This document shows, in pieces, positions 2,056 to 57,868 of a stretch of 64,000 nucleotides of DNA. Position 1 is the first letter of the stretch; each line of letters starts with the position of its first letter. A model generated the notes under the pieces. That model worked only from the letters and a program-made list of their open reading frames with translations, had not been told where the DNA came from and did no database searches. The translations under genes were made by a program, and so were the position numbers. The stretch spans positions 4,142,961-4,206,960 of the forward strand of contig NC_057751.1 in the NCBI RefSeq assembly GCF_004010195.1, read 5' to 3'. The DNA comes from Chiloscyllium plagiosum. Its lineage: Eukaryota.

Positions 2056-2188
2056 GGAGGAGAAAGTGAGGTCTGCAGATGCTAGAGATCAGAGCTGAAA
2101 ATGTGTTGCTGGAAAAGCGCAGCAGGTCAGGCAGCATCCAGGGAACAGGAGAATCGACGTTTCGGGCACAAGCCCTTCCCCAGGAATC
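2056..2188 (-). mobile_element. PLE family A terminal-repeat fragment with mutated hammerhead core
   Basis: Same sequence as the 57775-57868 tail; core reads CTGGGGA instead of CTGANGA. Confidence 0.7.
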
Positions 2189-2399
2189 AATATATCTGAG
2201 TTGTATTGACCACTATGAGTGCAGGTTGAGCACGATAGTTTTTGAATGGTTTTGGCATTGAGCTGGACACACAAAATCCAAATTCCCATTGTTTCCATTG
2301 GCTCACTCCTCCACCATCCAGCAAGTCCTCCCAACTCTTGTCTCTTCAGCAGTCAAGCCCTCTCATTCGTCCAGCAGCATGGTGAATCCATGTTGATTT

Positions 2400-2830
2400 G
2401 AGTTGCAAAATACTCGGCAGGAGCTTTCCAACATGACCATTACTCTGAAGGGAGGGAGCTCAGGTCAGAGCCAGATTGTGTTCCAGAATTTGATCAACAT
2501 CTGGTAAAAGGCAGGCAACTCTCGCAAGATACCACAAGACTTTTTCAATTTGTAAACATATCTACATGGCTCCCCATGTAAAGGTATCGCTGGTGGGTCT
2601 TGAAGCCAGAAGGTTGCCGTCTGGGTGTGAAAGCACACCAGGACCTGTTTGCCCTCCTTAAGCAGGGGGCATAGAACTGAGGCAGAGACCCAATACTGCT
2701 TTCTGTCCCAGAAGTCAATGAGCTTCTTTTGTGTCTTAGTGACAAAATCTGGGGGGAGGGATCAAAATGACCAACTGGAACCACTTCATGGTGGACACCA
2801 ATTCGTTTATAACCAGGGCTCAACACGTGT
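2400..2830 (-). mobile_element. Tx1/L1-clade LINE ORF2 fragment (frameshifted)
   Basis: Minus strand ALVINELVSTMKWFQLVILIPPP/DFVTKTQKKLIDFWDRKQYWVSASVLCPLLKEGKQVLVC resembles the post-RT region of Tx1 elements. Confidence 0.65.
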
Positions 2831-3616
2831 ACACAAGCATGCAGGAGTCCCTTTCTTTGTAGTAAAGATTTCATCAGGAAAGACCTGTTTGTCCTGAATG
2901 TTAACAAGACAATGTATAGAACATTAAAACAGGTCCCACCCAACTTGGCCGTGCAGCTAATGCAGGCCCTGGTACTTATACTGAAAGAAAGGTGAGATAC
3001 CTGAGCATTCAATCTTACATTTTTCTGGTACTCTGAGAACTGCATCACGTATTCACCACGACCAGTTTGCAATTAACAACCAATTTTAATTATTCTCCTG
3101 ACTCTGATGCAGGAGTTATTTGGCATGTTACAGTCACAGAGTCATAGAGATGTGCAGCACGGAAACAGACCCTTCAGTCCAACTTGTCCATGCTGACCAG
3201 ATATCCCAACCCAATCTAGTCCCTCCTGCCAGCACCCGGCCTATATCCCTCCAAACCCTTCCTATTCATGTACCCATCCAAATGCCTTTTAAATGTTGCA
3301 ATTGTACCAGCCTCCACCACATCCTCTGGTAGCTCCCTCTCCCTATAGCTCAAATCCTCCAACCCTGGCAACATCCCTGTAAATCTTTTCTGAATCCTTT
3401 CAGGTTTCACAACATTGGCACAGATCAGAATGCCATCTGTTCCCAAATTCCTATTGCCATGCAGTGATCAGCCTGGTGTCTGGGCAAGTGTTGACTGGGA
3501 CTCTGGGAGCTTCTGTCTAAATGAGGCTTGTGATTGACTAAAAGGTTAATTGAGCAGTGGAGTTAATGAAGAGCAACAATAAGCTTATATGTATCTCTCT
3601 CTTGCTTTCTGAGCAG

Positions 3617-3722
3617 TTCCACTGTGCCCATCAACTAGCTGAATGGTGCCTGCATCACATCTGTACAAACTACAACAACGTATGTCGCAAGTTTCCCAGG
3701 GAAATGAAGGCAAAGTCTCCTG
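3617..3722 (+). CDS. RHOBTB2: Rho-related BTB domain protein 2, penultimate coding exon (gene starts upstream of window)
   Basis: Pyrimidine tract + cag|TTC acceptor and G|gtagga donor. Translates [35 protein letters not shown], matching the recalled RHOBTB2 ([11 protein letters not shown]) better than RHOBTB1 (NYNSVCSKFRK). The phase-1 end joins the next exon in frame. Confidence 0.93.
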
Positions 3723-4891
3723 GTAGGATTCCGATACCCTTTCTCATTCAACAGCACCATGTGGTCTGCCGTACAATTTCACTTTCATCATTGTAACACC
3801 CGACAGTGTTCACTCGGCACCTCACTTTGTTAATGATCCTTGATAATTCACAAGAGGCTCAGGTTTCTTTATTTTATTTGTGCTTTGACTTTTAGGCAGT
3901 TAGAGCCCTTTTAATTTTTTTTTTGAATTAGATTAGAGGTGGAGTATGATGTGAGCTAAGTCTATTGTGAGAATTCAAAGAAATAACACAACTTCCAACA
4001 ATCCTGGATGTCATTCTCTCTATAAGTTAATTCACAGGGGACCTTTTTATCAACAGCAGGCTCTGGAACCAGAGTACACAGATTGAAACCAATAAAGCTG
4101 GAGGGGGCAATGTGAATTAATGCAGTGAGGTTTTATGATCCAGAATGCATTACCTGAAAGAATGGCAGAAGCACATTGAACAGTAACTCTCAGGAGAGAA
4201 TTGGATTGCTCTTTTAAAAATAAATGATTTGGGACAAGTGCAGGAAAGCGGCATAAACTGGAGCTCATTCAGAAAGCCAGCAGGGGGTGCAATGGGCCCA
4301 GTGGTGGACTGCTGTGCTGTATGACTCTCTGATTTGGTAACTGGTATATTTTTGTTTCGGTTTGTCGCCCTTTTCTGGATAAAATTGCCACAAGTCCCAT
4401 TCTTGTTCCAACTTGTCACGGTAATAGTTGTCAATTGCTTGAGAGGAGACAATAGGATTTTGTAAGCACTGGCCAAGGTTCACTTGTTTGACTCAGTCCA
4501 GCCTTGTTTCAAAATGTTGGAGCTGACCACAATGGTTCTTTAACATGAAACTCAAAAGACAAGCTTGTTTCACTGATTTGTTAAGAGATTGTTTGTTTGT
4601 TTGTTTATTTCAATCCTAGCTAACAGTCTCTTTCAGTTCAGAAAGATGAAAAAGCAGATTTTCTTTTTGAGATTGTGCTATTGTGACATTGGGATATCAC
4701 ATACTGTTTCACTGCCTCTGAAGTGCTTTTAAAGTGTTGTCAGTGCCTTAAAGTCAGAAACACAGCAGCCAATTTACACACAACCAGATCCTACAAAACT
4801 GTTGCGTGATCCTCCTGTTTTCAATTATTTTGGTTGGGGGATAAATATTGACAAGAACACCAGATATTAGAAGTCTGCTCTTCCTTAGATA

Positions 4892-5049
4892 GTGTGGCAC
4901 TGGAGAAGCACAGCAGGTCAGGCAGCATTTGAGAAGCAGGAGAGTCAACATTTCGGGCAGAAGCCCTTCAGGAAGGGCTTGTACTCGAAATGACAACTCT
5001 CCTGCTCCTCGGATGCTGCCTGACCTGCTGTGCTTCTCCAGTGTCACAC
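4892..5049. repeat. Inverted pair of PLE family A tails (78-bp arms, 2-nt centre) inserted in a Deu-SINE
   Basis: Arms 4892-4969 and 4972-5049 are imperfect reverse complements centred on aagcccttc-ag-gaagggctt. Confidence 0.8.
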
Positions 5050-6269
5050 CTGTTAATTCTGATCTGCAGCCCTTCTTTTCTCCTCTTCTTTATATAGAAT
5101 ATGCAATGTTTCATGTCCATTTGAGAGGGCTGATAAGGACTTTTTCTGAAACCTGACCTGAAAGATTATCTGCATTCCTTAGTCCTACACCAGAGTATCA
5201 GTCTGGATTTTGTGGATTTCTGCACCGATCCGTCTGGTGGGCTCAAGGTTAAAATGCCCCCAGATTGACATATCGACCTTCTTTTGGGAGCTTCACTCAC
5301 TTTGAAGGCCATTATTGGAGCTATTGTACATTTCTGTCCAGGTAGGAATCCCACAGGCTATCAGCCAGCCTTCAGCTGTAAATTTTGAAGTGTTGAAGTA
5401 TTTAGCTTTGAGGATGGGGTCTGCAAGCATTGCTGCTGACTTCCCAGCACTAAATAAAATTACATTGAATATTACAAAATGAGACTGGCTATTGAGCACC
5501 ACAGATCGGTGATCCATCTGAGCTACCACTTCCCAGCTTACTCATCTCACCCGATCAAATTCTTGCCTCATTTGCTTTTCTTGCTTTCCTTTAAATGCAC
5601 TGATATCATTTACCAAAAACACTGCCTATAATAGAGAGCAAGTTCTACTTTTTTTCTCCACTCTTGGAGGTAAGTCCCCTGAATTCCCTCATCCATTTAT
5701 TAATGACAATCCTATTTTTAGCCCTGAGGTTTATATTTGCTGAGATCCTCAGTCCATCTCGCTTTTTAAAGTCCTTCATCATCCCACCCAGACAGATGTG
5801 TTGTCTGGTCAGTTGTGGAATCTCAATAAAAGGAGTGAAAAGCCTCCTTTTACACACTTTCCTCCTCCCTGTTTAAGGCTGTAACACAAGTAGCTAAAAG
5901 TTTTTGGGATCTCATGAGTCCGTGCTTTGAACAAATTGCCTGTCGTTATGATGTAGTCTGGTACTATTGATGGGAATTGCACACTTATCCAGAAGGAAAT
6001 TCCAATATACCGCAGGATTCATAAAAGGGAATGTAGTTCACCATTCAGCCTGCTCTACTATTTGATTATGACTGATCTGCACCTGAGCTATGACTAGCTG
6101 CTTGAGCTCCGTATCCCTTGATAGATTTACCTCACAAAAATCACAATCTATTTCAGTGTTGAAAGGTGCAGTTGTCTTCCAACATCCGCAGCCTTTGAGC
6201 AGAAAGGTTAGGAAAACTCTGGAGCGTTTATGTTTGAGAAATGGACCCGGATCAGAGCTAACCATGAAA

Positions 6270-6655
6270 TGAAAACTGAGTTCAAATATCACTCCGGAGG
6301 GTTGACCACATAATCTCGGCTGAGAATCCTAGGCAGTCCTGGGAGATCCCTGCATTGTCTGGAGATGCTGTTCTTTGGATGAGATGTTAGCTAAACCATG
6401 TCTGCCCTCTTTGGATGTAGAAGATCCCTGGTGACCGCTCAGAAAAAAAAACAGCGGAGTCTTGTCCAATTATCCTCAACCATCATGATTAACATACAAT
6501 CGCATTACCTCATTTCTGTGGGATCTTCCTATGCGCTGATTGTCCACAGTGTTCCCTCTGTGGATGGCAACACTTGAAAAGTACTTAATGGGTCATGAGA
6601 CATTTTCTGTTGTCTCAGGTTGTCAAAGACACAAATAAAATCCAAGTTGTTTCTC
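6270..6655 (+). mobile_element. Deu-domain (SacSINE1/AmnSINE-like) SINE, diverged; further copies near 4700-5220(-), 23790-23960(-), 54300-54530(+)
   Basis: gctgttctttggatgagatgtt...gtctgccctct..ggatgtagaagatccc..g resembles the recalled Deu-domain; L2-like tail. Confidence 0.6.
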
Positions 6656-6819
6656 AAACTTGGAATAGCGGGGGGATTGTGTGTGTGTGGAGCTACAAAG
6701 ATTGAGTTGGGCAATGAAGGCTTGCAGGTTCCACTCAGGAAGGGAAGACCTTATAAGGTGGTGTGAAATCAGTGTGAAGCAAACATTCCATTCATGATTT
6801 TGTTGACATGTCCTTTCAG

Positions 6820-7013
6820 AAAACCAGGACTACTTTGAAAAGCACCGCTGGCCTCCTGTCTGGTTCCTAAAAGAGGATGATCACTACCAGCGAGCCAGGA
6901 AAGAACGTGACAAAGAGGATTACTTGTGCCAGAAACGTCAACTGAAGCGCAAGTGGTTTTTCTGGAATTCAAGTTCACCTTCCACAGCCTCGTCCTCTTC
7001 CACTGTTGTCTGA
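6820..7013 (+). CDS. RHOBTB2: RHOBTB2 last coding exon (absent from ORF track)
   Basis: tcctttcag|AA acceptor completes GAA. Translates (E)[66 protein letters not shown] at 7011-7013. HRWPPVW motif and Ser-rich ...VV tail are typical of RHOBTB2. Confidence 0.95.
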
Positions 7014-7204
7014 AACCATGGCTTGGATTAATTGACCCTTTCTATTTTAGAAAAAAAACTGTCGGTTCACCCAGTTTGAAGGCCTTAGTTTCCAATTGGC
7101 CAAGCCTTCAGTGGATTTTAATAACGACGGGGCCAAAATGGTGAAAGACAGCTAAACCATGGCAGCCAAAGTGAGTTTTTATTTTCTGATGGCTGGTGCC
7201 AACT

Positions 7205-7312
7205 TTCTTCCTCTCTCTCTCTCCTCCTTTCTCTCTCTCTCCCTCTCTCATTCATATATACACAAACACACTAACACACACGTAAACACATGTATACATA
7301 CCAACACACAAA
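7205..7312. repeat. (CT)n/(CA)n low-complexity tract in RHOBTB2 3' UTR
   Basis: Direct inspection. Confidence 0.85.
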
Positions 7313-10300
7313 CGAGGCATTAATAAAACTGAACTGTTGGCTCAACCCCATAACTATTGCCAGACTTGTAAGGGTTTGGTGAAACTGAATCCTCTGCCAC
7401 ATTGATCAGATCAGATAAACTACAGTAAAGCAGTGGGAGAATTTTGATTGTGATTTTATAATTGGCAACTTCTGTTAAACCTGGTTGCTGACAGGGAGCC
7501 ATCTCGTACAGTAGTACATTTCAGGGAAGCATGATATTTCCTTTGCATGGATCCTACTGTGGCTGAGCCAGCTCTGGTAAAACTGGTATATCCTAGGGTT
7601 CTTTATTTGGGTACGAATGGAATGGTTCTTATCACCTATATATACTGCTCATAGCTTCTGTTTAAAGATTGAGAAATCAGGGTTAATTTCATGGAATTTT
7701 TATCACAGAATACTTATCTTCCTCCTGAATGTCGGAATGTCACCTAAGAATTTTTTTTTTTGTTGACTTAAAAAGTAATCCCTGCATTTGGAATTTATCC
7801 TTTACACGCTGGATCTATGAACAAAATGTACATGTTTTGTATTTGAAAAGCTGAAGTAAAGTGAACTGGAAGTTTCAGTGAATAAATCTCAGTCAGGAGC
7901 AAGGTGATTCCTTCTCCACGTGACATGTAAGATTCAGTATTGTAAAATGATACCTGCGCAAACCGAACTCTGACACACTATGAGGAGACAATGTGAGGTG
8001 AGAGATGAGTGAGTTGAATTATTTTCTTCACAGCTCCGAGGAGGTTTACACAGCAATTTTTTCAGATTTATTTTTTTTCCCCCAATTGTGATACATCATT
8101 TAAAAATGCAGCCGTTTTCCTAATGTTGCATTTTGACTGAACTCTTAAATCTTTAGTCCAGGACAGCCCTGGGGAGAGACTGAATCTAAGGTCAGACAAG
8201 ATATTGCAGGTATATTTCATGCAGCTTTTACATATTGAAATTTTCTTCATGACATGCATCGAGAATGTTCTCCAGGTCTGGGCCATTGGAAATTGGAATG
8301 GAATCAAGGAAAAGTCAGTTTCCTTTTCACCCATTTCCATTTCCATTTCCTTCGGCTTGTGCTGGAAAAATAGTGATCGAACTGTGATTCTCAGGTTGGA
8401 CAGTTTTCAACTTGAAACTTAGTTACAGCAGATATACAGACAGCCCAGCCCCGATGCTGTTTGACTGTACCCTACGCACATCCTGAGACTGTACTTGTAC
8501 ATACTTTGGGTGATACATTGGTGCTGGAAGCACATGGGGAACGCCAGACTGTTCCAAAGCTCTCGTGCAACAATGGATGGATTGATCCAAAACAAGACAA
8601 GTGTAAATTAGCACAGTTTGAGTCATGAAGAAAGAACAAGACACCCCTCCTTGTGGCGGTTCTTTAATAAGCAGGCACTGATGGACATCACTTGTCTGTC
8701 GTGAAAGCAAAGTCCAAGTGCCTCCGCCATCTTATAAAACCATTATGTGAAACCAGAACACACAACAAATCTGTTGGTGGTTTGTAGTAATTCTACCAAT
8801 TGCTGAGCTTTGTGTACTTTGGCATTTAGAAAGCACCTATTGGATGAGTTTTTGAGTTGTGAATCCTTTTTAGATTGAACATTGAGTCCCTTTATCTACT
8901 TATTTATTGTATGGATCTAAAGTAGTCTTTTTATTGGAATCAAACATTCACCTTCGTTTGTTACCTTGTGAATCAACATGAACAATTCGTTTTTAAGGAA
9001 ATCAGAGATTTTTCTTGGGTAGTTGTTTTGCAGAAAGTGATCAAGTTGAAGAATAAACTGGATGTGAAAATATTTTTAAATGTTGTCAGTTGGTAAGTTT
9101 TTGTCTCTTGAGTGTAGGGATCCTTGTGTAAATACACGAAAATGTCTTTGTAAATGTGGTCTGAAACTACTCTCTACCTTTGAGATACAAGCTTGTAAAA
9201 ACGTGCAACATGTCAATCTCTGCTTTCCAAGTTGCTGGGATTCTCTGCTGTTTGAGGTGCAGGGCATTTGTAGTTGATGCTTTTGTCAGAATTGGGAGCT
9301 CCTTCCCCACACACACACACATGCAGTACCCTGGGAAGCAATGTGCAAGTTACACCTCTAAACTGTCTCTGTGTTGTAGAGGTGCTCCTCATCTGCAATC
9401 CAAACTCAGAAGTTGCAGTTAGATTCCAGAAATGCCTCACTGATCAGGTCGTTTGCCTTACAGACAGCTCCCCTGGCTGGTACTGTTCTTGGGGTGGAGC
9501 GTATCTGAGCCTGAGAAAGTATGAGAAGCAATAAAGAAACAAACCTCTGCGACAAAGAATGGTAAGAAAAGTGGTCTGGCTTTGCATGTGGACCCTTTAG
9601 TTAGAAGCAGGAATTGATTAATCACCAGAAGACAATGATCTAAGGGATTGCTTAACAATCAGACAGACTGAAAGAGACAAAAGAACAATTGTGCTGAACT
9701 GGGGAAAGCAGTGAAGGAAACAGGAACTGGTTATCACGTAAAACTGCAGCTTTCAGCTGCCCAGCATTTGTCAGCTTGTTCAATCTGAAGAAGTCCTTCA
9801 GCATTGTCAGTGGTTCAAGGCTGTTAGGCTGTTGTGCGTGCTCTCCAGAGAATGGGTTTGTTTTTTTAGCAGCTCGTCAGGATCCTCCCTGAACCTTTTT
9901 CATGTCTGGCTTAGCCGCATTTATTCAAGGCATAAATCTTAACTTGCATCCTTGTTTTAACAATGCAAGTGCAGAACACTTTGCTCAGGGTAGTTGCTGT
10001 GAAGTTAAAACTATGGCAGTCTCGGGGCTGTGACAGTGCGCAAGCTTTTCTGAAATCTTTTCCAGATTTGAATACTTCAAACAGATTTCAAAACCTGCAC
10101 TGCAGTTCTTTAATATATCCCACAAGTTTTAACACCTCAGCCTAATACGCTGATCCGTATGACCGCATTGTGATGGGTTGAGTGGGGGAGCAATTCTGAG
10201 TAATTCTGTCGACAAAGCTACACCAACATAACTGGAGAAACACCAGCAGCATCTGCAGAGGGAAGGGGAAAAAAATCAGAGGAAACATTTCCAGTCCTGG

Positions 10301-14447: not shown

Positions 14448-14637
14448 AGTTGAAAAATGTGGTGCTGGAAAAACACAGCAGGCCAGGCAGCATCCGAGGA
14501 GCAGGGGAATCGATGTTTCGGGCATAAGCCCGAAACGTCAATTCTCCTGCTCCTCGGATGCTGCCTGGCCTGCTGTGTTTTTCCAGCACCACATTTTTCA
14601 ACTCTGGTCTCCAGCATCTGCAGTCCTCACTTTCTCC
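14448..14637. repeat. Near-perfect palindrome of PLE family A tails
   Basis: 76-bp arms (14448-14523, 14528-14603) with 3 mismatches around loop ATAA; the right copy continues to 14637. Confidence 0.9.
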
Positions 14638-14901: not shown

Positions 14902-16330
14902 TTTTTGTCATTTACATAAATGATTTTGTTGTGAACATAGAGGTATAGTTAGTTCGCAGATGACGTCAAAATTGGAAGTGTAGTGGACAGCGAAGAGGGT
15001 TACCTCAGACTACAATGGGATCTTGATCAGATGGGCTTATGGGCTGAGAAGTGGCAGATGGAGTTGAATTCAGATAAATGTGAGGTGCTGCATTTTTGGA
15101 AAGGCAGATCCAGGCAGGACTTATACACTTAATGTTAAGGTCCTGGAAGTGTTGCTGAACAAGGAGACCTTGGACTGCAGATTCATAGTTCCTTGAAAGT
15201 GGAGTTGCAGGTAGATAGGATGGTGAAGAAGGTGGTTGGTATGCTTTTCTTTATTGGTAAGAGGATTGCATGTCAGAGTTGGGAGGTCATGTTGCGGCTG
15301 CACAGGATATTGGTTTGGCCACTTGTGGAATATGGTGTGATTCTGATCTCCCTCCTGTTGGATGGATGTTATGGAACTTGAAAGGATTCAGAAAAGATTT
15401 GCAAAGATGTTGCTCGAGTTGTAGGATTTGAGCAATAGGGAGAGGCCGAATAGGCTGGACCTGTTTTCCCTGAAGCTTCTGAGGCTGCTGGGTGACCTTA
15501 TAGAGGTTTATAAAATCATGTGGGGCATGGATAGGGTAAATAGACAACTTATTTTCCCTGGGGTGAAGGAGTCCAGAATTAGAGGGCATCGGTTTAGGGG
15601 GAGAGGGGGAAAGGGTCCTAAAGGGCAACTTTTCCGTGCTGTGGGCGATGGGTCTATGGAATGAGCTACAAGGGGAAATGGTGGAGGCTAGTCCAATTGC
15701 AACATTTAAAAGGGGTTTGGATGGGTATATGAATAGGAAGGGTTTCGAGGGATATGGGCTAAGTTCTGGCAAATGGGCTAGATTGGGTGAGGATATATGG
15801 TTGGCAAAGATGAGGTACTCAAAGTTTGGGAGAAGATTTGTAGCTCGGGTGCTCATTGTTGTGGTTCTGTTCGCCGAGCTGGGAATTTGTGTTACAGACG
15901 TTTTGTCCCCTGTCTAGGTGACATCCTCAGTGCTTGGGAGCCTCCTGTGAAGCGCTTCTGTGATGTTTCCTCCGGCATTTGTAGTGGTTTGAATCTGCCG
16001 CTTCTGGTTGTTAGTTCCAGCTGTCCGCTGCAGTGGTCGGTATATAGAATCGACAGATTCAATCAATAAGCACATTGACCTGGACCCTATATACCGACCA
16101 CTGAAGTGGACAGCTGTAACTGACAACCGGAAGCGGCAGATTCAAACCACTACAAATGCTGGAGGAAAGATCACAGAAATGCTTCACACGAGGCTCCCAA
16201 GCACTGAGGATGCCACCTAGACAGGGGACAAAACGTCTGCAACACAAATTCCCAGCTCAGCGAACAGAACCACAACAAAGATGAGATAGACTGAAGGGTC
16301 TGTTTCTATGTTGTATATCTCTGAGTCTAT
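14902..16330 (+). mobile_element. CR1-clade LINE 3' portion, interrupted by a PLE at 15815-16278
   Basis: FVIYIND...FADD at ~14953, WQMELNSDKCEVLHFG, DLIEVYKIM, and a CR1 3' tail. Confidence 0.88.
15815..16278. mobile_element. PLE family C insertion with 192-bp inverted arms, nested in a CR1 3' end
   Basis: Arms 15856-16047 and 16087-16278. The spacer region encodes STDSINKHIDLDPIYRPL (PLE ORF-end-like). CAAAGATGAG is repeated at 15805-15814 and 16276-16285. Confidence 0.75.
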
Positions 16331-17289
16331 GACTGTATGACCTGACGAAGGAGCAGTGCTCCAAAAGCTCATGATTTCAAATAAACCTGTTGGACTGTAA
16401 CCTGTTGTTGTGTGACTTCTGACCTGGGTTTCTGGTAGATATAGCGATTGTGGCCAAAATAATCAACTAATGTGAGGGGAGGGGAGGATTCGGGTATTGA
16501 GCTCAATGATCAGCTACGATCATAACGAATGGTGGAGCAGGCTGACTCCTTTCTATAATGTTTCTAAGATTCCATGATCCCTAGTCCAATGACAGTATGC
16601 CAATTTTGACAAGTTCTGTGACCCCAAGCAGAAATAGAACCCAGTGAATCTTTGCAGGTGAAAAGGTTCAAGTTTGAAAACTGATGAAAATGCACATGGT
16701 GAACAAAATTTGTGTCTGTATTCATGCATCAAAAATAGAGAGAATAAGAGCATGGGTTTCATTTATTAACAAGTTAAGGAGCAAGATGTTTAGAGAGGAT
16801 CTGAGAAAAACTACTTTTCACCCAGAGAGCGGTGGATATTTGGAAGTCTCCCTCTCAAGGGGCTCAAGTCAGTAACCCTGAAGTCATTTTTTAAATTTGT
16901 TCATGGGATGTGGGCATTTCTTGCTAGGCCAGCATTTATTGCCCATCCCTAATTGCTCAGAGGGTAGTTGAGAGTCAACCATTTTACTATGGATCTGGAG
17001 TCACATGCAGATCAGACCAAATAAGGATGGCAGTCTCATTCCCTAAAGGACATTAATGAACCAGGTGGGTTTTTCTGACAGCCAACACTGGTTTCATTGA
17101 AACCTTGAGATTCTTAATTCCAGATTTTCATTGAATTCAAATTCCTGCATCTGCCTGGCCGGATTCAAGCCCAGCTCCCAGAACATTTTTGGGATCTCTA
17201 ACTAACAGATTAGCAATAATATTTAAGAAGTATTAAGATCATCTCCCTGCCCCGACACTCATCCCTGAAATGTCTGCATAACAAGGATA

Positions 17290-21225: not shown

Positions 21226-21366
21226 GGGCGGCACGGTGGCACAGTGGTTAGCACTGTTGCCTCACAGCGCCAGAGACCCGGGTTCATTTCCTGCCTCAGA
21301 CTTGTTGTGCTGAAGGGCCTGTTTCCATACTGTAATGTAATCTAAAAAAAATGTAATCTAATCTAA
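21226..21366 (+). mobile_element. HE1-type SINE with internal deletion
   Basis: tRNA-like head joined directly to the gaagggcctgtttcc/(TAATC)n tail; V-domain missing. Confidence 0.75.
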
Positions 21367-43080: not shown

Positions 43081-43506
43081 CATATCATCTATTGCATCCT
43101 TTGCACCCGATGTGGCCTCCTCTATATTGGGGAGACAGGCCGCCTACTTGCGGAGCGTTTCAGAGAACACCTCTGGGACACCCGGACCAACCAACCCAAC
43201 CACCCCATGGCTCAACACTTCAACTCCCCCTCCCACTCCACCAAGATATGCAGGTCTTTGGACTCCTCCATCGTCAGACCACAGCGAAACGACGGTTGGA
43301 GGAAGAACACCTCATCTTCCGGCTAGGAACCCTCCAACCACAAGGGATGAACTCAGATTTCACCAGTTTCCTCATTTCCCCCCTCCCCCCACCCTGTCTC
43401 AGTCAAATCCACCGAATTCAGCACCGCCTTCCTAACCTGAGATCTTCTTTTTCCAGCAACACATTTCCATCTCTGATCTCCAGCATCTGCAGACCTCACT
43501 TTCTCC
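43081..43506 (+). mobile_element. Penelope-like element fragment, GIY-YIG endonuclease domain (one frameshift)
   Basis: From 43081: HIIYCILCTRCGLLYIGETGRLLAERFREHLWDTRTNQPNHPMAQHFNSPSHSTK, then after a frameshift DMQVFGLLHRQTTAKRRLEEEHLIFRLGTLQPQGMN. IIY..CxxC..YIGET.R...RF.EH is the PLE GIY-YIG signature. Confidence 0.88.
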
Positions 43507-45821
43507 TCAGTTCTGAAGGATACAGACCAAGCCTGTCCTTGGATGGTTATCTGCTCCCTCCAGGTTTTAGGTAGCAAACCCCACAGATTTGCTGGCACAG
43601 CACAGAGAGTTACCCTGGTCTTCTTTTCATTAACTAACTAAAAACATCACATAACTGCAGCCTGAAGTACAGAAGCCAGCCACAGGACTGGGATACAAAC
43701 TATGGGTGCATAGGAAACTGCTTGTACTTCTTGAGCATGGCACACAGCATGAGGACTTTTGGATGCTCTTGAATGGCATTTCTGTTCCCCAAAGTACAGA
43801 GTATATGCACAGAATACTGTTGTCAATGACGTTGTCAGAATGAGTGAGCCGAGTGTGTTCAGCTTTCAATCCAGTGAGACCATTTCTGCTTGTTCAGCTC
43901 GATTTTCAGATTTTTTTAAAGCAAGGGCAGTGGATTGACCTTCTCTGTTCCTCAGCCAGCTCGCCCACGAAGACTCTGACCATTTGTTACTGTACATTGC
44001 TGCTGTTTACAGAACCCTGCTGTCTACAAGTTGGCTTTGATTCCTTAACAGTTTCACTGGGGCTGCCAGGTGCTTTGGGAACATGAGATTCAGAAGCAGA
44101 ATTAGACCATTCGGCCCATCGAATCTGCTCCAGCATTCCATCATGGCTCATATGTCTCTCAAATCCATCCTTCACCTTCTCCCCATTACCCTTTATCCCC
44201 TTACCAATCACAAACCTATCTCTGTCTGCTCAAAATACACTCAGTTACTTGGCCTCTACATCCCTCTGCAGCAATCAGTTCCTCAGAATAACCTCCCTCT
44301 GGCTGAAGAAACTCCACCTAATTTCACTCAGAAGCTGTGCCCTCAGCTCCTAATCTCTCCCACTGGTAAAAACATTTTCTGTACATTCACCATTCATAAT
44401 TTCTGTTAGTTTCAGTGAAATCACCCCTCATTCTTCTAAACTCCTTTGGGTACAGACCCAGAATCCTTAACCATTCCAGATATCCCGCGGAAGATCCCAC
44501 AAACAATTGAGAAGGACACCGATTCCACTCACCCTCCTCCGGTTGTGCTCACCCCCATTGTCACAACACAGTAAAACAGGCTGACTTACCTCCCAATCCT
44601 GCCTCTGGTCGGTGGTCCTTGAGGGGATGTGGGTGTCACAAACTGGGGCCAGTATCTTTTGCCCATCACTAATTGCCCCTGGAGAAGGCAGTGGTGAGCT
44701 GCCTCATTGACCCACTGCAGTGCATGTGCTGAACTGACAGTGCCATCAGGAAAGGCCACCTTGTCATTCCCACCCACTTGGCTCATGCAGGTGGGCGGTC
44801 TGGTTTCTCAGACTTTCGACTGACTTCGATACAACCGTAATGGCATGTTCAGCACTTTCAGAGGGCATTGAGGAGTCACCAAGTCGCTATCATGTTGATT
44901 CCACACAAATGTCGAGGGTGCTCCTGTCTGTTAAGGAGCAGTTATCGAAGCCTGGAGGCATTTCCAAATAACTCTTCATTTCTGTCGCAACCTGAACTGC
45001 ACCCATTGTGGTTGAATACAAAGTCTAAGGCTCTCCCCATCAGCACAGGGTCAGGACATGATCAGGCAATAACTTCCCAATGGACCAGAGGTAACCCTTC
45101 ACTCAATGCACATGGAGGAGGTGGTGTTGTGGGAATGTCACTGGACGAGTAATGCTGAATGTCAGGCGAATGCCCTCATCTAGGAGTTCAACTCTCAGCA
45201 TGGTGGATGGTGCAGTTTGAATTCAATGAAAAGCTCTTCTAATGACGACAATAGATGTGTGACTCCATCCTTCCATAGTCTGCCCTACATGTGACACCAA
45301 GCCCACATCATGTGGCTGACTATTAAAGTGTCCTCTGGGCATTGGGAATGGAAGAGACATGCTGGTATAGACAGCAGTGTCCACACATCCCATGAACAGC
45401 AGTATGTCTGCAGTGATCTCTGCTCTGATGTGTGTGGTTGAGCTGCCCTCTTCTGGTGGCTGCTTTCCTCCTTCGATCCTGCCTTTCTTGAAAGGGTCTT
45501 GGATTGGAATCACATTGCCCAAGGCTGTGTGCCTGTGAAAGCAAAGACCTGGGAGTCATTCCTTTTGTCAGTGCCAATCCATGTCAGTCTGCTCTGCAGC
45601 CCTTTGATGGACCAGCACCCTCAGGTTAGAGTAAACTAAACTGACTTGTCCATTCTGAGGAACAGTGATGCAGGACAGGAAAAGTTAGCTCTGTTTGTCG
45701 AACCACAGATGTTGCCAGAGCTGTCGAGTCTCACCAGCGTATTCAATTCTGACATCAGATCTCCACCATCCCCGGTAATTTACTTCTATTTATCCTATGA
45801 CTTTTAAACTTTCCAGTTTTT

Positions 45822-47365: not shown

Positions 47366-48314
47366 TGGTGTTTTGACCAGTCTTGCAGTAATTGGTGGAT
47401 TAATGACAATGCAGTTGATTAAATATCAATGATCCCATAATGACTGCAAATCATCAATGAAAGAGAGGACGTGATTGCTTATCACACTTGAAAGAGATTG
47501 TTTGGAGATTGTGTGCTGGGCACAGATACTGTCTTGAATGAGCCAGCAGTTCCTGTGCTTGCCTGCTACCTGGTTATCTGATCAAAGCTGAGCACTGTAG
47601 ACTGTTTTTGCTTTGCCTAAATTGGATGTGACCAGTTTCCTTTCTTGCTGCTGTGATGAGCTGCCAGACATTTGTTGATTGGATGTGGATTGGAGGTGAT
47701 CAAGCTGAACCAATCTTCCTTCAGTCCAGCTTGGGGACAGGCTCACAGTGAGATCCTGAACAGCTGCTGCCTGCCTAGTTACCAGGGCTTTGTACTGGTC
47801 CAGATAAATTGCCCATTGTGTTTCCCTCTCCCCCTCTCTGGGATTCAACCTTCTCTTTTACAGCCCTGGTTACTTACGCACTGATGCTGTTCTGTTACAT
47901 CCATCCTGCACTTTGCTCAGAATCTGGACTGACTGTGTGTTGTGACAAACAGGAAGAGACTGCACTCCGCACCCTCCACCCTCAAACAGCTCCTTGCACG
48001 TCACTGCATGCAGCTGCAGTGTGCAAAGCAAACCACCCACAATGTTCAGTCTTCTTTTTAAAATTCCCCTTTGTGGAATTCTCTGCTGCACAGGCCAAAG
48101 TGTTGAAAGATTTCAAGGTGGAGTTTAAGATGGTTCTTGGTGCGAAAGGGATCGGTGGTTGTGAGGAGAAAGCGGGAAGTGGATGGTCAGACATGATCAT
48201 ATTGAGTGGTAGAGCAGGCCCGAAGGGCTGAATGGCCTGCTTGAGTTACTCTTACACTTGAGTTAAAAATCAAACAATACCAGGTTATAGTCCAACAGGT
48301 GTATTTGGAGGCAC

Positions 48315-48343
48315 GAGCTTTCAAAGCACTGCTTCATCATCAG
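48315..48343 (-). ncRNA. Minimal hammerhead core, degenerate (PLE family B)
   Basis: Minus strand CTGATGA-T-GAAGC-AGT-GCTTT-GAAA-GCTC, with the same downstream tail as the 28443 and 37323 copies. Confidence 0.45.
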
Positions 48344-49014
48344 GGGGTTCTGGAGCACAATTGTTTAGTTTTGAGGTTTTCTGCCTTATGTGTTGAGGAA
48401 AGGGTTTCCAAGTGGGCAGTGTCCCTGCTTGGCAGAATGAGAAAGAAAATCTCACCGTGCTGTAGCTTTTATCGGAGCGTCAAAAGCACTGAACAGCCAA
48501 TGAGTGCTTTTACAGTTGGAACTCAGTGGACACGACTCTCACCTTGATCAAAAGGTGATCGATTGATGTCCCACTCCAGGATGCTGACATCAGACATTAT
48601 TCTGTGGTAGATGGGCACTGTGGTAACCTCAACTGTAACTCAGGCTATTCCAGGTCTCTCCCACCTGGTCTCTCACATTTACCTCTCTGAAGCTCATCCA
48701 AAGCTGCCCATGTCCAAATGCACAGCAAGTCCTGTTCCCTCTATCAGCCCCCGTGCTCTCTGGGTAAACAATGGCATGGTTTGAAATTTCTCATGTTTGT
48801 CTTCATGTCCCTCCATGGCCTTGCCCTTCCTGACCTCCATCAATTCGCCCAGCTCCAAAATCATCCCACTACACCTGGCCCTCAGGACACTTTGCCTCTG
48901 GTGGCCGTGCCTTTAGCTGCTTGGGCCCCAAGCTCTGGAATTGCCTCCCTTCAGCATCCCCACCTCTTGACCTCACTTTCTGCAGATGCTCTTTGAAAGC
49001 TGCCATAATAAGGC

Positions 49015-49570: not shown

Positions 49571-49834
49571 GACCATTTGCCTAGATACCTTCTGCGGTAC
49601 CAAAGTGCAATCTTTCAGTTTAAGACACTCTTGAACAGTATTCTGTTTAAGTTGTGCCCCCAGTTCTTGTAAAGCCACCAATCTCAAACCAGCAGCTGAC
49701 ATAAAGTGGTGTGTTTTTGTGATGAAACACAGAAACTAGAAGCAGGACAAGGCCATTTGGCCCTTCAGTTTTTAGATCAGAGTGGTGCTGGAAAATCACA
49801 GCAGGTCAGGTAGCGTCCGAGGAGCAGGAAAATC

Positions 49835-49862
49835 GACGTTTCGGGCAAAAGCCCTTCATCAG
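49835..49862 (-). ncRNA. Minimal hammerhead ribozyme core (PLE family A)
   Basis: Minus strand reads CTGATGA-A-GGGC-TTTT-GCCC-GAAA-CGTC. Confidence 0.62.
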
Positions 49863-49896
49863 GAATGATTTGGCCCTTTAAGCTTGCCACCACAGT

Positions 49897-50149: not shown

Positions 50150-52511
50150 ACAAGTCACTTTAAAATTGTAACATTGACTTGACCTAATACTGTGCCCCTG
50201 TTTACTGAAAGTCCTTCCTGTGTGTTGGCACCTGTTCATTCACAACAAAAGGGCCTTCACACAGGAAGAAGGTGGGAGCCTCTGATCCTTCCCTTCAATG
50301 TGGTTTTCCGCGACAGAAGCCTGTTTCGGACTGCCTTGTCGTCTCTCACAGAGAGTCTGGGAGAAGTGCAGCACGGAAACAGACCCTTCATTGCAACTCC
50401 TCCATTCTGATCAGATACCAAATGGATCTGGCAGTCCATTTCAGATCGCCGACTCCGATCAACATTCTCCTCAGCTGAGAACAACTCATGCTGGAGATCA
50501 CAGCAGGTTAGGCAGAATCCGTGGAGAGAGAGCAAGCGCACGTTTCAAGTCTGGATGACTCTGCATCAGAACCCCGTCTCAAACATCTCAAACCTGTCGC
50601 TTCTGCTGACTGGCTGTGATCAGGATGGGGGAGTGGGAACCTTTTATTCAGAATTGATTCCAGTGTCCCTGCCAAAGGTTTGGAGCTTTGAATCCCAGTC
50701 AGGGGAGAGGAATAGGGGTGATTGCATTGATTTAGTCTGAGAGGTCAGTACAGTACTGTCAGGGGGAATGCTGTTCTGTCTGAGGTGCCTATTGTGTGAA
50801 GATTGGAGCATTGAGCAGGGGGCCGTAGATCCCACACCAGTAATTTCAGAGACGGTCATGCCACAATCAGCATTGCTGAAAGACAGACAAGGTTCACCAA
50901 GGCACAGCATGGTAGCTGGTGGGATCGAGCTGAACATCACCTGCTGCTGCTTCTGAACTCACTGTGTCAGCTGCCAAGTTCTCCATGGGAGAGTCCGAGG
51001 CTGTGAAAAACAACGGGGAGACACTGAACTTTATCAATCTCTCTCTCTTCCTCAAATGTGGGTTTTAAAGTGGAGAGTTGGGGGAGGGGGGAATAGGGAT
51101 GGTGTTGGGGAGGTGGGGGATTGGTGGGGTGGGATGGGATGAGATGGGGTGGATGGATTTTAATTTAGATAAATGCAAGGTGCTGCAAATCGAAGCAGGA
51201 CTTATAGACTTAATGGTGCTGTGAGTTTAGGTTAGACCAGACATTTGTGACAGAGAGCTGCAGCAGCTGAGGGTCTGAGGGTGAACACCTTCGGAGAGCA
51301 CAGGAGACAAAATCCCCAAACCAGTGCTTTCCAAATGGAGCTGCTGGTCTCGTGACAAAGACAGATGGCGGGGGTGGGGAGGAGGGAGGGGGTGGGTTTG
51401 GGGTCAGTCCACAAGACAAGTGTCAGCTCCTCTCCTGGCCAGGCTGATGTGGATTGAACTAATCCCACACCCCGCTCTGTTTGTGTCTGAACAAACAAAT
51501 AGGTGTCTGGCTTCAGCAGGGAGGCATGTTTATCCTCAGCCTGGCTTGGCTGAACTAGCTTTTGTAGTTGTGGTTGAGAAATGGGCCTGGCATACGCAGC
51601 AGAGTTTAAGACAATATTCCAAACAGAACTGCACTGCAGAGGGAAAGATTGCCCTCCAGCCTGGAATGTAAGGGATTGTGGGAGAATGGGAGCAGCCCGA
51701 GGGATACTGTACAGACCCTGGGGCACGTCTGAGACAGAGAGGGAAGGTGTAACATGTGAAAAGACAGGAGGAAATTCTCTCAGTGTCGCAAGGGCTCATT
51801 GTTCACAAACCGGCGACGGTGGAAAGGTTAGTTACAGACCAGCAGGTTCTGGGAACTAGGTACTGAGGGTCATGTTTGAGCGTGAGGCAGTGGTCACAAA
51901 GACACACAATGGGAAAAGACCACTGCCTGAAGCCGCTCAGTCCTAAAGTGTAGAGAAACGTCAAAACTAGGAGCTGGAGAAGGCCATTCAGCCCTTCAAG
52001 CCTTCTCTGACATTCAATTTGATCATGGCTGATCATCCAACTCAGGGCATTGTGGGTCTGTCTACAGCACAGGCACTGTAGCAGTTCATGAGGCCAGCTC
52101 ACCATGACCTTCACAAGGGCTAACTTGGGACAGGACAGTAAATACTGGGCCCAGCCAGCGATTCCCACATTCCCCGAGTGAATAAAAATATCCTGTACTG
52201 CTGCAGTAATAACTTGTTGCTCCTATATTCAAACTGTCTTTTAATGAAGGTCAAGACATGATTGCCTTCCCAACTGCTTGTTGCTTATATCCCTGGAAAG
52301 GCTGGTAGGTGTAGGGAATGCTGGATGACTTAAGATGTTGAGGGTTTGGTTAAGAAAAACAAGGAAGCACATGTCAGGTATAGACAGAATAGATCAAGTG
52401 AATCCTTAGAAGAGTATAAAGGCAGTAGGAGTATACTTAAGAGGGAAATCAGGAGGGCAAAAAGGGGACATGAGATAGCTTTGGCAAATAGAGTTGGGGA
52501 GAATCCAAAGG

Positions 52512-52854
52512 GGGATTATTTGGGGATTGATGCAGGGCCCTGGGGAAAGAGTGCGTCAGTGAGATTATTCAGGGATTGATACAGAGCAATGGGGAAAGAG
52601 TGGGTCAGTGAGATTATTCAGGGATTGATACAGGGCTATGGGGTGAGGGTGGGTCAATGAGATTATTTGGGGATTGATACAGGGCTCTAGGGTGAGAGGG
52701 GAGCAGTGAGCTTATTCAGGGATTGATACAGGGCAATGGGGAAAGAGTGGGGCAGTGAGCTTATTCAGGGATTGATACAGGGCTATTGGGTGAGAGTGGG
52801 GCTGTGAGATTATTCAGGGATTGATACAGGGTTATGGAATGAGAGTGGGCCTGT
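52512..52854 (+). repeat. 49-bp minisatellite, 7 units
   Basis: Units start at 52512, 52561, 52610, 52659, 52708, 52757, 52806; consensus ~GAGATTATTCAGGGATTGATACAGGGCTATGGGGWRAGAGTGGGGCAGT. Confidence 0.92.
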
Positions 52855-54532
52855 GGTCTTAGTTTGAGACGGATACAGGGCTATGGGAGAGTTGGGTTGT
52901 GAAGTCAGTGATGATGTGAGGCAGAAGGGGACAAGGAAGGGAGTGAAATAGGGAACTGAAAAGGCAATGGGACGGAGAGCAGTGCATGAGGAGAGAAGGT
53001 AGGCCAAATGCAGGGAACTGTTTTCAAGATCTCACATCAGAAAAGCAGTAATTTTCACAATGAAGTTTAGTGGGAGGAACATTTCTGAAGAATAAAAATA
53101 ATTTGCCTGTTGAAAACACCTTTAGTGCAGTGAAACATTCCAAGTCGAATTTCAAGCAAGCAGAATCTCCAGCGAAGAGCTCTTATGTCTCTCTTTCACC
53201 CTCTGCCCAGACTCTTCCCAAGTGCAATATACTTTCACTCAAATTCCCTGTTTCACTCGAATTAAGACCTGTCTGGCAAACAACACTGTCTGCAATTGTT
53301 ACACAGCAGTATGAAGCACCTGTCTCAGTGTAGTCCCTCACCTTGAGCCCTGGCCAAGCCAACAGGTCCTCTACAATTCCATTGAGAAGGACAAGGGCAG
53401 CAGATACACAGGAACACCACCCCCTGCAAGTTCCCCTCCGAGCCCCTCACCATCCTGACTTGGAAATACATCGGTGTTCCTTCAGTGTCACTGGGTCAGA
53501 ATCCTGAAACTCCCTCCCTGAGGGCATTGTGGGTCAACCCACAGCAGATGGACTGCAGCGGTTCAAGAAGGCAGCTCACCACTGCCTTTTCAAGGGCATC
53601 TCAGGACGGGAAGTAAATGCTGGGCTCAGTCAGTGATGCCCGTATCCCAGAAATGAATAAAAAAATGCCCTGAGGGACACGCACACGTCTTTGCAACACC
53701 TACATGTGTATTTCACAATGGAGCAAGTGCAGTGAAAGTTGCAGGACCGCGTGTGATGCTTCTGAGCAGCTTCAGGAAGTGAAATTTCACACCGGGTCAT
53801 ATCAATGAGGAGGCTTTTCAGTTCAGTGCAGTCAAGTTGCAGAGTGCAGCTTCATTTAATTCCCATCTCAACCTCCCCCCACCTTCGTCAACGTCAGGAA
53901 CAGGCTCTGAGGACTTTGTGCCCTTGATAGTGGCTCACATCCCAGTTGTACCTGGGGCACAAACGTGTACTCCTGAGATTCCCAGCTGGGTGGGAGCCTA
54001 TATTGCTGCTAATTGGCCAGTGCACCTAAGCATTCTGGATTAGTGGTGCTGGAAGAGCACAGCAGTTCAGGCAGCATCCAAGATGCTTCCCCTCAGCACG
54101 CATGCATGGGCAGAGACATAGCTGGGAAATGGGAGCATTGTCTCTCTGCAGGATACACTGAATGACTGAGAACAAGGAACATTGATCCCTTCTTAGTGGT
54201 CCTTTACTTGACAGCAGTTCATTATCTCCCATGCTCTGAGGTGTCTGATGCAAGTTAACTGATGTGTTAGACCCCAGGACAGTGTTGTAATTTGATGATG
54301 GGGAAGGGACTTCTCCCCTCAGTCTCCTGGGCAATAGTTACCTTTCAAGCTGAAGAATGAGAACACGTGATTATGTAATTATCACTTTGCTGATTGAGGG
54401 AACTTGCAGTGCACAAATTGAGCTGCACTGTCCGAACTTTACAACAGTGGCCACATTTCAATCACTCTTTCATTGATTGGGAATGCTTTGGGCCCACTGA
54501 GGCTGTGGAAGGTCCTGGTCTGCATTTCTCCT

Positions 54533-54858
54533 GCACACACTCACACACAATAAACACATTCTCTCTCACAGACACACATACAATCTCTCCCTCACACACA
54601 CACACACACACATGCACACACTCAAAGAAACACACACAAGCAAAACACACACACTCTCATAGACACACACTAACATACTCTCCCACACACACACACATGC
54701 ATAATCTCTCTCTCTCTCACAGATACATATTCATACTCTCACCCCATAAACACATACACACGCACAGTCTTTCTCACACACACATCGTCAAACTCTCTCA
54801 CACAGACACATACACAGACAGAGTTTGTCTCTCAGATACACACACCTACACATACAGT
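54533..54858. repeat. Degenerate (CA)n/(CT)n tract
   Basis: Direct inspection. Confidence 0.9.
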
Positions 54859-57377
54859 GAGACTGAATATATTGCTCTCTGCTGTCCCACTGGAAGACTG
54901 GCCTTGACATATTCATGGGAATAGCTGCCTTGCTGTTTTTTTTGAGGGGTGGAGGGTGGGGGTGGTATTCGATTTGGTCACGTTTGTGGGATTCCCGATA
55001 GATATCCTGGTGTGCCCAGCTAAGTAAACGTTCTGTCAGAGAGAACCAGACAGACAGAGGGAGGGAAAGAGCCTGTGACCTCTCACACGTCCCCCTTTAC
55101 ACTGACCCTTGGGCCAAGTGGCTGGAGCAGTATTTGACCTGACCATCAGGAATATATCACCAGCTACTTCAGCTCAGCAGGGTGTGGGGACAGAGTGTAA
55201 GCTCACTCCTACTCAGGGGGTCCCCTGTTAAACTACACAAGATGCAATGTTCCTCTCAGACAGAGGAACACTGCTCCTGAAAATCTTTTTGGTGTTTCCT
55301 GTAACGCTGGGGGAAAGGGTGCCAGGCTGTGTCTCAGAGGAACAGAATGAGAAGCCTCGAGACAGTTGGGACAGAATCCTTGAAATCCGTGCTGGAGTGG
55401 TGTTTTCAAATGTTTGTTTAAAAGGACAGGCAAAGTGGTTTTGGGAATGACTCCCAGACTGTGAGACCTTGCTGATTAAAGACACAGACTTTCTCAATTA
55501 ATTAATTCATTCAAGGGATGGGGCCAGCGCTGGCTGAGCCAACATTTATTGTCCATCTCTATTCAGTTGGAGGGAATGGAGGTGATGATGTCTCTGTTCA
55601 ACTGTGGCCCTCGTCCTCCTGGCCAGGGGAGGTGGCAGGTTTTGGAAGATGCTTTCACAGTTGGTGTATTGTGCACAGTTCTGAGGGCCATGCTGCAGGA
55701 GGGGAGTGAACACATTGGAGAGAGTGCAGTACAGATTCACAAGGACAATTCCAGGGATGAGATGCTTCAGTCAGGAGGAAAGATTGCTGAAGGAAGGACT
55801 GCTTTCCCCACACGGAGAAGGCTGAGAGTAGATTTAAGAGGAATTTTTGAAATCATGCGGGCTTCGAACAAACTGGACAGGGAGAAACTGTTGCTGCTGA
55901 TTAACTGAGAACCAGAGGGAAACATGTTTCACGTTCTTTGCAAAAAAAGCAAATGCAAAATGGGAAAAAACATTTTCACTTCGTCAGGATCTGGAATGCA
56001 CTGTCTGGATATAGGTTCAGTTGGGGCATTTGAGTTGGAAATAATCGGCAGGGTAACAGAGGAAACGTAGGAGATTGGCACACAGTTACAATGCCCATTG
56101 GTCAGGCAATGGGCTGAATGGCCTCCTTCTGCACCAGAACCATTCCCTGGATCTGACACAGAAAGTCAGCAAGTGACGGACAAGAGGCTGGATTCAGAGA
56201 TGGAAAGTGGGCAAAGCAAACAGGGAAGGTCATGTGTTTTAATACTTGCACATTTCTCATTACATATCAAACCAATGAAATATTTTTTCTTGTCACTGAT
56301 GCAATGTAAATCTGCAAGTTAAGGCACTGGATGAGGGAGCATGTCAGAGGTGAATGTGAGTCATTGAACTGTCTGCTCCCAGTGCCTGGGATTGGCTGTG
56401 AACAACTGAGATTTGAATGAGCTGAAATTTACAGGGTGGGAGGTGGGAGATCCACCAACAGCCATCGACTACTTGGACCCTGGAGGTGACAAACACACAG
56501 AGCAGGGTATCAAGAGCAAGAAAAACCTGCTGTGCATCTTAATTTCCGAAAGTCGCTTGAATCCCACTGCAGCTCAGAGCTCTGGATGTGCCTTGGTGTT
56601 GTGGGGCTCATGGGTTTAATTGCCACGATGGCAGCTGATGGAATGTAAAGCGAGTCTCGGTGATGAAGAAAAAACACCTTTGACCACAAGTCCATCAGGA
56701 AGTGGTCAGCACGTAGTGTCCTTGAGACCCTTCGGGAAAAGGAGAGGGTGGATCCTATCGAGCGGTTCCCTGAGCAGACTGTCAAAGCCATTTGGCAGAA
56801 TGCCTCATCGCCAGAACTTCCCAACAAGCACCAAGACATGGCTTGGCTGGTGGTGAGAAGGGCACTGCCTGTGAGATCCTTCAGTCTGGGCCACCTCGAA
56901 GTGGCTGCAGTGGGGCGGGTTCAGACTGTAACACATCTCCTTCTGGAATGTTCCTTTGTAAAGGAAGTCTGGAGGAAGATGCAGTCGGGGTTCATCCTGA
57001 GCAGCTCCATGACACGGGGCTCTGTGCTTGACTCTGGGCAGAACCCAACTGCTTTTGTGACTGTGTACATTGAAAGATATTTTTATAAATACACTATATT
57101 TTTTAAAGTTAAAACATAAATCAACCAATTGCAGCTCAGCTGAACTGACGACCCTCCCACAATCACAATCCAGGATGATCTCAAGATCCTCTGATGATGC
57201 AGCGTCTCAGCTCAGTCCCGTCCTGGGAGACCCACCTTCTGGATCAGGGAATCACCCTGTGCCAGGCGATTTTCTTTCTCCACTGCACCTTGGCAGCAGC
57301 TGCCCTGAGCTGTAGTGCGTCCCTCAGCACGTAGTCCTGGACCTTGGAATGTGCCAGTCTGCAACACTCAGTCAGGG

Positions 57378-57403
57378 NNNNNNNNNNNNNNNNNNNNNNN
57401 NNN
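57378..57403. other. Assembly gap (26 N)
   Basis: Run of N. Confidence 1.
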
Positions 57404-57868
57404 TTCAACTCCCCCTCCCACTCCACAAAGGATATGCAGATCTTTGGATTCCTCCATCGCCAGACCACAACAAAATGATGGTTGGAGGAAGAGCGCCTCA
57501 TCTTCTGCCTAGGAACCCTCCAACCACAAGGCAGGAACGCGGGTTTCACCAGTTTCCTCATTTCCCCTCCCCCCACCTTGTCTCAGTCAAATCCATCGAA
57601 TTCAGCACCGCCTTCCTAACCTGCAATCTTCTTCCTGACCTCTCCGACCCCACCCCAGTCTGACCTATCACCCTCACCTTGACCTCTTTCCACCTATCAC
57701 ATTTCCGACGCCCCTTCCCCAAGTCCCTCCTCCCTACCTTTTATCTTAGCCTGCTGGACCAACTTTCCTCATTCCTGAAGAAGGGCTCATGCCCGAAACG
57801 TCGACTCTCCTGTACCCTGGATGCTGCCTGACCTGCTGCGCTTTTCCAGCCACACAGTTTCAGCTCTG
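57404..57868 (+). mobile_element. Penelope-like element 3' end: GIY-YIG C-terminus, UTR and hammerhead motif
   Basis: Degenerate FNSPSHSTKDMQ...LEEERLIFCLGTLQPQG, near-identical to the copy at 43081, followed by CTGAAGA-A-GGGC-TCAT-GCCC-GAAA-CGTC at 57775-57802. Confidence 0.82.
57775..57802 (+). ncRNA. Minimal hammerhead ribozyme core (PLE family A)
   Basis: CTGAAGA, extra A, stem II GGGC/GCCC, GAAA, palindromic ACGT, putative GUC cleavage triplet. Stem I is very short. Confidence 0.62.

Follow-up and report, generated by a model that had tools for sequence, protein, structure and literature searches.

Hammerhead motifs in a 64-kb window of the Chiloscyllium plagiosum genome as probable remnants of Penelope-like element terminal repeats

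The 64,000-nucleotide stretch of Chiloscyllium plagiosum contig NC_057751.1 analyzed here (positions 4,142,961 to 4,206,960, forward strand; hereinafter the window) holds an eIF4E-binding-protein gene (eif4ebp) on the plus strand, with exons near 19396-19533, 35955-36129, and 37624-37655, and, facing this gene (19396-37655, +), a TGF-beta-family gene on the minus strand with two exons in 59655-63732, which we take to be Nodal-like. It also holds repeats whose best protein matches are from Chiloscyllium punctatum, and short motifs with the layout of hammerhead ribozymes, which the original prediction had ascribed to Penelope-like elements (PLEs). These motifs are very probably minimal type I hammerheads of the PLE terminal repeats (pLTRs), left in 5′-truncated, often inverted, dead-on-arrival fragments of at least four families (A-D).

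We searched the window with a minimal-hammerhead descriptor (CUGANGA followed by an optional base, stem II, GAAA, a palindrome of two bases, and UH) and recovered each of the ten motifs listed earlier in its place; the minus-strand numbers used then denote the H17 end, with C3 lying at 2183, 23004, 49862, 28471, 48343, and 15930. The catalytic boxes are intact by this descriptor in six of the ten (57775+, 49862-, 23004-, 28471-, 37323+, and 48343-) and altered in the other four. Allowing up to one mismatch in the core and one in the stems yields nine cores, adding 2183-, 16342+, and 15930- and missing 16204+, which has one core and two stem mismatches. In 40 dinucleotide shuffles, strict matches were absent and relaxed ones averaged 0.3 (maximum 2); two further relaxed matches (53762+ and 55180-) fit no family and were treated as chance. 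All nine relaxed cores use the extra base between positions 9 and 10.1 and open stem II with G (partnered by C in seven and U in two), and the palindromic positions 15.2/16.2, which lack a monomer helix III, read ACGU in A and C and AGCU in B; the proposed type I minimal architecture with its extra nucleotide and palindromic stem III is thereby borne out. The short helix I covaries (CAC/GUG at 28471, UAC/GUA at 37323, UUCAC/GUGAA in the metagenome contig L002, GCA/UGC in C, and UC/GA in A) and is broken in 16342, 48343, and 23004. Its contiguous length, put at 2-4 bp before, is 0-3 bp in the ten motifs (A: 2, 2, 1, 2; B: 3, 3, 1, 0; C: 3, 3). Stem II does differ between families around the shared boxes, but the perfect GGAGC/GCTCC stem attributed to family B occurs only in the G12-mutated 16342 copy. 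Since both family C cores belong to a single inverted insertion, one on each arm, the ten cores amount to nine insertions, and to the three families recognized previously are added a fourth, D, and several overlooked family A fragments without boxes (4888-5085, 14448-14637, 43449-43510, and 54043-54080).

This layout matches the PLE minimal hammerhead defined, in the parts of the paper available, by Cervera and De la Pena (2014; PMC4209133): CUGANGA with an extra nucleotide, G10.1-C11.1, GAAA, palindromic 15.2/16.2, and UH, along with a stem I of 2-5 bp, several families per genome, thousands of mostly solo copies, and opposite-strand pairs. The kind of motif, including its massive solo occurrence, is therefore known from that source, and is here extended to a shark-type genome at high density: six intact-box cores per 64 kb, a figure for this single window rather than a genome census, is far above the ~4,000-9,000 per genome given there for coelacanth and Xenopus. 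No shark appears in the main-text parts or the one searchable supplement of PMC4209133, and a literature search, whose coverage left out most subscription papers and repeat databases, turned up no shark ribozyme study evident by title among the matches listed.

Family A appears to be of the Neptune type, and its fragments include the following:

2057-2190, minus strand: end fragment with 3′ tail, starting 2-4 nt before C3; core 2156-2183 with CUGANGA changed to CUGGGGA; 9-bp flanking duplication
4888-5085, no single strand: incomplete core; head-to-head palindrome with its joint at the CUGA box/stem II
14448-14637, no single strand: fold-back palindrome centered on the stem II loop (14520-14531); tail on one arm only; CUGA box absent
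22880-23186, minus strand: tailed fragment that includes a partial inverted arm (23072-23186, plus strand); intact-box core 22977-23004 with H = U and stem I of 1 bp; antisense in eif4ebp intron 1
43075-43510, plus strand: GIY-YIG remnant with one frameshift; an internal deletion took the hammerhead, with the tail kept
49782-49868, minus strand: fragment starting ~5 nt before C3; intact core 49835-49862; ~10-bp flanking duplication
57404-57870, plus strand: GIY-YIG C-terminal end with one premature stop, open reading frame (ORF) stop near 57619, 3′ untranslated region (UTR), and core 57775-57802, which is intact; tail lacking; an N gap conceals the 5′ end

The GIY-YIG domain is detected by Pfam at 43060-43323 (25.6 bits against a cut-off of 22.6), and this region is 90% identical to 57404-57633 over 232 columns; as had been noticed earlier, the 57775 core follows the end of a GIY-YIG ORF, lying ~155 nt after its stop. 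Longer homologues of this endonuclease make up 5 of 31 candidates, among them two proteins of 816 and 902 aa with reverse transcriptase (RT) plus GIY-YIG (46-49%) and two Chiloscyllium proteins with RT motifs (76-85%). A CX2-5CxxC linker before GIY-YIG, seen by eye in homologues P0003, P0005, and P0006, marks the endonuclease-bearing (EN+) Neptune/Nematis PLEs in the accessible part of PMC8557442, where truncation, an adjacent inverted copy, and an optional 30-40-bp tail are likewise described as PLE traits. Family A shares these features with Neptune-type elements, as does L002 with the linker; unlike in those elements, however, the linker lies in homologues outside the window; Neptune and Nematis are not separated here, and the single ORF with both RT and GIY-YIG is found in close homologues, with only endonuclease remnants in the window. 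The family A core pattern had no matches in viral contigs. The palindromes at 14462-14589 and 4913-5028 score as microRNA precursors in Rfam; these top matches fall on fold-back palindromes and all are below the gathering score, and we rejected a microRNA reading. Directly upstream of the 57404 fragment, at 56670-57116, lies a zf-RVT remnant of a non-LTR retrotransposon.

Family C is of the Poseidon type and forms a single insertion with two cores:

15815-16281, no single strand: the insertion, with inverted arms of 195 nt (93%), of which only the minus arm has a tail; 10-bp flanking duplication
15897-15930, minus strand: core with G12A and an A.G mismatch in stem II; stem I of 3 bp
16050-16220, plus strand: C-terminal end of the RT/GIY-YIG ORF, its last codons and stop inside the hammerhead
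16204-16237, plus strand: core with G12A and a second stem II mismatch; A9-U9.1-G10.1 forms an ATG opening a short frame

The translation of 16050-16217 matches three of five candidates, all Chiloscyllium proteins, at 77-88%, and P0009, which has RT and a GIY-YIG-like region, ends in the same C-terminal residues as this ORF, the terminal residues being encoded by the 5′ half of the hammerhead. Inspection by eye found no CX2-5CxxC linker in P0009 or P0010. Reads from 4 of 24 listed runs were mapped to 16040-16450 at 80% likeness, which pools copies genome-wide and covers families B and C; RNA data are from X21 alone (2420 matched reads), a second RNA run, X22, having given no matching reads and hence no test. 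The AAAA of both window cores, in place of GAAA, is decay of this copy and not a family feature, because G12 (GAAA) is carried by 183 of 210 RNA reads and, in DNA from two organisms, by 93% and 92% of the depth; among the matches listed (40, with 29 more beyond these), none repairs the A.G mismatch of stem II. As far as the accessible text of PMC11167929 goes, family C resembles Poseidon PAc of Anolis carolinensis (Frangieh et al., 2024) in its RT/GIY-YIG homologue without a linker zinc finger, the ATG at the start of stem II, an optional tail, an uncleaved RNA template, and the lack of RNA-seq ends at the cut site; unlike PAc, it is present in the window as a truncated, decayed end known from sequence alone. 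The ATG, formed with the extra nucleotide at the start of stem II, is in another frame than the ORF end. A public Chiloscyllium 5′-nucleotidase isoform, P0008, ends in the family C endonuclease tail, either by exonization or as an annotation artifact.

The family B fragments, in which we came upon a poly(A) site, are these:

16337-16423, plus strand: fragment; core 16342-16370 with G12A and a broken stem I
16380-16400, plus strand: AATAAA (16380-16385) and the poly(A) switch point of RNA reads (16396-16400)
28355-28518, minus strand: fragment; intact-box core 28443-28471 with stem I of 3 bp and ATTAAA; aligns to L002 over 79 columns; upstream limit not fixed
37164-37426, plus strand: fragment with an interrupted inverted arm; intact-box core 37323-37351 with H = U; sense in eif4ebp intron 2; AATAAA deleted
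48261-48355, minus strand: fragment with a mutated hexamer; core 48315-48343 has intact boxes and weakened stems

The exact core pattern of this family was found in two metagenome contigs, L001 and L002, of one distant marine element. L002 has a GIY-YIG-like frame with a linker finger ~750 nt upstream of its core (no Pfam match; E = 5e-6 against the window GIY-YIG), a stem I of 5 bp, a 75% match to 28440-28518, and AATAAA downstream of the core; L001 bears part of an RT in inverted orientation (E = 1.5e-5, below the cut-off). Thus, the PLE origin proposed earlier holds for A and C by RT/GIY-YIG protein homology, and for B appears to hold indirectly, since its tie to PLE proteins runs through this marine relative and not through window ORFs. 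In the reads, G12 is present in 884 of 1357 RNA reads and in 27% and 42% of DNA depth, the DNA share probably being biased low by the mutated reference; GAAA is present in the consensus of loose ends from 238 and 236 contigs, and H17 is split between A, U, and C. The marine element would be a better candidate for cleavage assays than the window copies.

Poly(A) terminates 890 of the 2420 matched X21 reads, these 890 being of family B type; it begins 11-15 nt past AATAAA and 26-30 nt past the cut site. They switch to an A run at 16396 (496 reads) and 16400 (394 reads; agreement 0.81-0.82); the two positions are probably a single site seen in two alleles. The site precedes a GU-rich tract, and the family sequence there is not A-rich; RNA depth falls at it (1436, 965, 251) and DNA depth does not, with DNA loose ends lying at 16415-16425 and carrying no A run among the matches listed. 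From this one RNA run, a single sample whose reads are unassigned to loci and for which genomic A tails at a few loci are possible, we judge that the family B poly(A) site is probably used in cells. AATAAA is kept in only one of the four window copies (16342), 28471 having ATTAAA. The supplement of PMC4209133, as available, has AAUAAA just downstream of the turtle and Xenopus(2) motifs, as in family B, in a part that the paper labels only 'AU-rich'; a literature search on PLE polyadenylation, including a term search of PMC2377424 and with most subscription papers beyond its coverage, gave no report of this site. A short deletion has removed the AATAAA of the one family B copy in sense orientation in an intron (37323-37365, eif4ebp intron 2), a single anecdote.

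Family D has three members (40305-, 50569-, and 45655+), and weak similarity of its 3′ body to family A is its sole tie to PLEs:

40200-40320, minus strand: fragment; core 40276-40305 with boxes intact and stem III/UH decayed; stem I of 4 bp
45653-45744, plus strand: strongly decayed family D-like fragment
50478-50572, minus strand: fragment; core 50539-50569 with two core changes

Locus 12234, aligned as a possible further copy, was dropped as it lacks the GAAA box.

The insertions share a distinctive anatomy. Several copies begin 2-12 nt before C3, three carry 9-10-bp flanking duplications, and five have inverted arms (4970, 14525, C, 23004, and 37323); families A and C have two 3′ ends ~30-35 nt apart, with or without the tail. 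Every core is continuous across its cut site, which implies that the template RNA was uncleaved or religated. No same-strand partner of the same family is arranged in tandem with any core in the window, as expected for truncated relics. Across eight family A copies and 76 columns, CpG positions are changed in 12 of 64 cells versus 33 of 472 elsewhere (p=0.006). On the sequence evidence, these are dead insertions, recognizable by their truncation, CpG decay, inverted arms, and optional tails, and the solo copies appear to be mostly inert and in neutral decay. In the DNA contigs, the best-supported opposite-strand joints among those listed, which lie in family B, link 16340 to 16372-16375 in at least 23 contigs of X1 and at least 26 of X14, a position equal to the stem I register (the 16340 side being partly set by the start of the reference copy); likewise, the family A palindrome at 14525 is centered on stem II. 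Such inversion joints may have arisen by fold-back of the cDNA at the hammerhead stems.

Taken together, we picture the following course. The cores stand at or after the ends of RT/GIY-YIG ORFs in A and C, and, by way of its relative, in B; the fragments of A and C run through the cut site to one of their two 3′ ends, as though copied from uncleaved RNA. By analogy with PAc biochemistry, the PLE protein would nick DNA and start reverse transcription within the RNA downstream of the hammerhead, and the polymerase would often halt or fold back at stems I and II, giving fragments that start at the front edge of the motif as well as palindromes. In an intact tandem element, to judge from the literature, pairing through the ACGU/AGCU palindrome would join two cores into a slowly cleaving dimer, probably aided by protein. 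Family B fragments would in addition carry the poly(A) site that cells appear to use.

Other explanations have to be weighed against the one in which the motifs are relics of pLTRs. Many solo copies could be working self-cleaving RNAs in host transcripts, acting as trans-dimers or after fold-back inversion lengthened stem I: copies are abundant, the boxes are intact in the family consensus sequences as well as in six cores, transcription has a sense bias, and joints in the stem I register would lengthen that stem. However, family-level RNA reads have no site with many starts or ends at the B or C cut sites, a null that is weak for cleavage because the B 3′ product is only 26-30 nt plus tail and 5′-OH ends may be under-captured, and sense depth is flat over the family C site (192, 186, 182). 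In the folding model with 20-nt flanks, all 12 cores have an active dimer 13-38 kcal/mol less stable than the minimum-free-energy dimer, and the predicted probability of stem I pairing does not exceed 0.13 in the window copies or 0.37 in L002; this is weak evidence, as nearest-neighbor models ignore core tertiary contacts. In the accessible parts of the literature, monomers were inactive and dimers weak (PMC4209133), and cleavage by the anole PLE needs its protein, with insertion in vitro not needing cleavage (PMC11167929). We hence deem this explanation unlikely, and the earlier inference of dense self-cleaving RNAs goes unsupported: the copies are solo or head-to-head CpG-decayed relics with no tandem partner, their cores span the cut sites, and no read ends mark cleavage. 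A canonical intronic hammerhead reading was also rejected. Weighing against the pLTR-relic explanation, besides the limits of the read-end null, is the absence from the window of any RT and any full-length or tandem element; tblastn with eight PLE proteins likewise found no RT there, nor any remnant of an ORF upstream of the B and D copies. In favor of it, non-CpG changes in the eight family A copies number 2 of 56 in the core versus 31 of 416 in the flank (p=0.41), so that the core is not significantly better kept; against it, this test is small, with flank counts that include subfamily differences, and its point estimate leans to a better-kept core.

The short fragments might instead belong to autonomous-like SINE (short interspersed nuclear element) or retrozyme families moving as their own short or circular RNA, as the clustering of 5′ ends near C3, the ~10-bp flanking duplications of some copies, and the polyadenylated B-type RNA could suggest. 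Yet the same sequences run upstream into GIY-YIG in other copies, and family B copies in the genome continue for 15-50 nt past the poly(A) site and lack A tails, so polyadenylated RNA was not their template, which was rather read-through RNA. The non-LTR retrozymes, type I hammerhead-bearing and PLE-related and present in the one chondrichthyan sampled, form tandem arrays according to the available parts of PMC7229834 and bioRxiv 10.64898/2026.07.22.740005, whereas none of the 18 tandem-repeat rows in the window overlaps a core; finding no tandem units bearing hammerheads, we rejected the retrozyme reading and hold mobile short RNAs in general to be very improbable. That the matches are chance or low-complexity artifacts might be argued from the short stems and from Rfam, where none of nine matches in the window at E<=5 is a hammerhead family; set beside six strict matches against none in the shuffles, and agreement with the published consensus, this is scarcely credible.

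The role of PLE hammerheads is still open in the portions of PMC8557442 and PMC11167929 available, and the joints in the stem I register, together with the poly(A) site that is probably used 26-30 nt past the cut site of family B, provide two testable handles on it. One long shot is that family B pLTR fragments are a mobile hammerhead-plus-poly(A) cassette, with many insertions now serving as 3′ ends of shark transcripts, the ribozyme 26-30 nt before the tail, and cleavage triggered by dimerization or by the PLE protein stripping the tail. Regulated cleavage is its unproven part; poly(A) use itself is fairly likely. A parallel is the split hammerhead of Clec2 3′ UTRs, where, per the accessible text of PMC6765202, a cut placed after the coding part and ahead of the poly(A) signal would remove the tail, as a family B cut would; the Clec2 ribozyme, however, is domesticated, active, and discontinuous, whereas family B is a repeat of putative activity. 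If true, the cassette would give feedback control, in the manner of a switch, over the mRNAs of element and host alike, and the PLE hammerhead would have a function separate from retrotransposition. For repeat annotation, the motifs are of use: fold-back copies mimic microRNA hairpins, and PLE remnants enter gene models, as in P0008. Finally, the window holds a 49-bp minisatellite of ~7 copies at 52514-52891, unrelated to the hammerheads.

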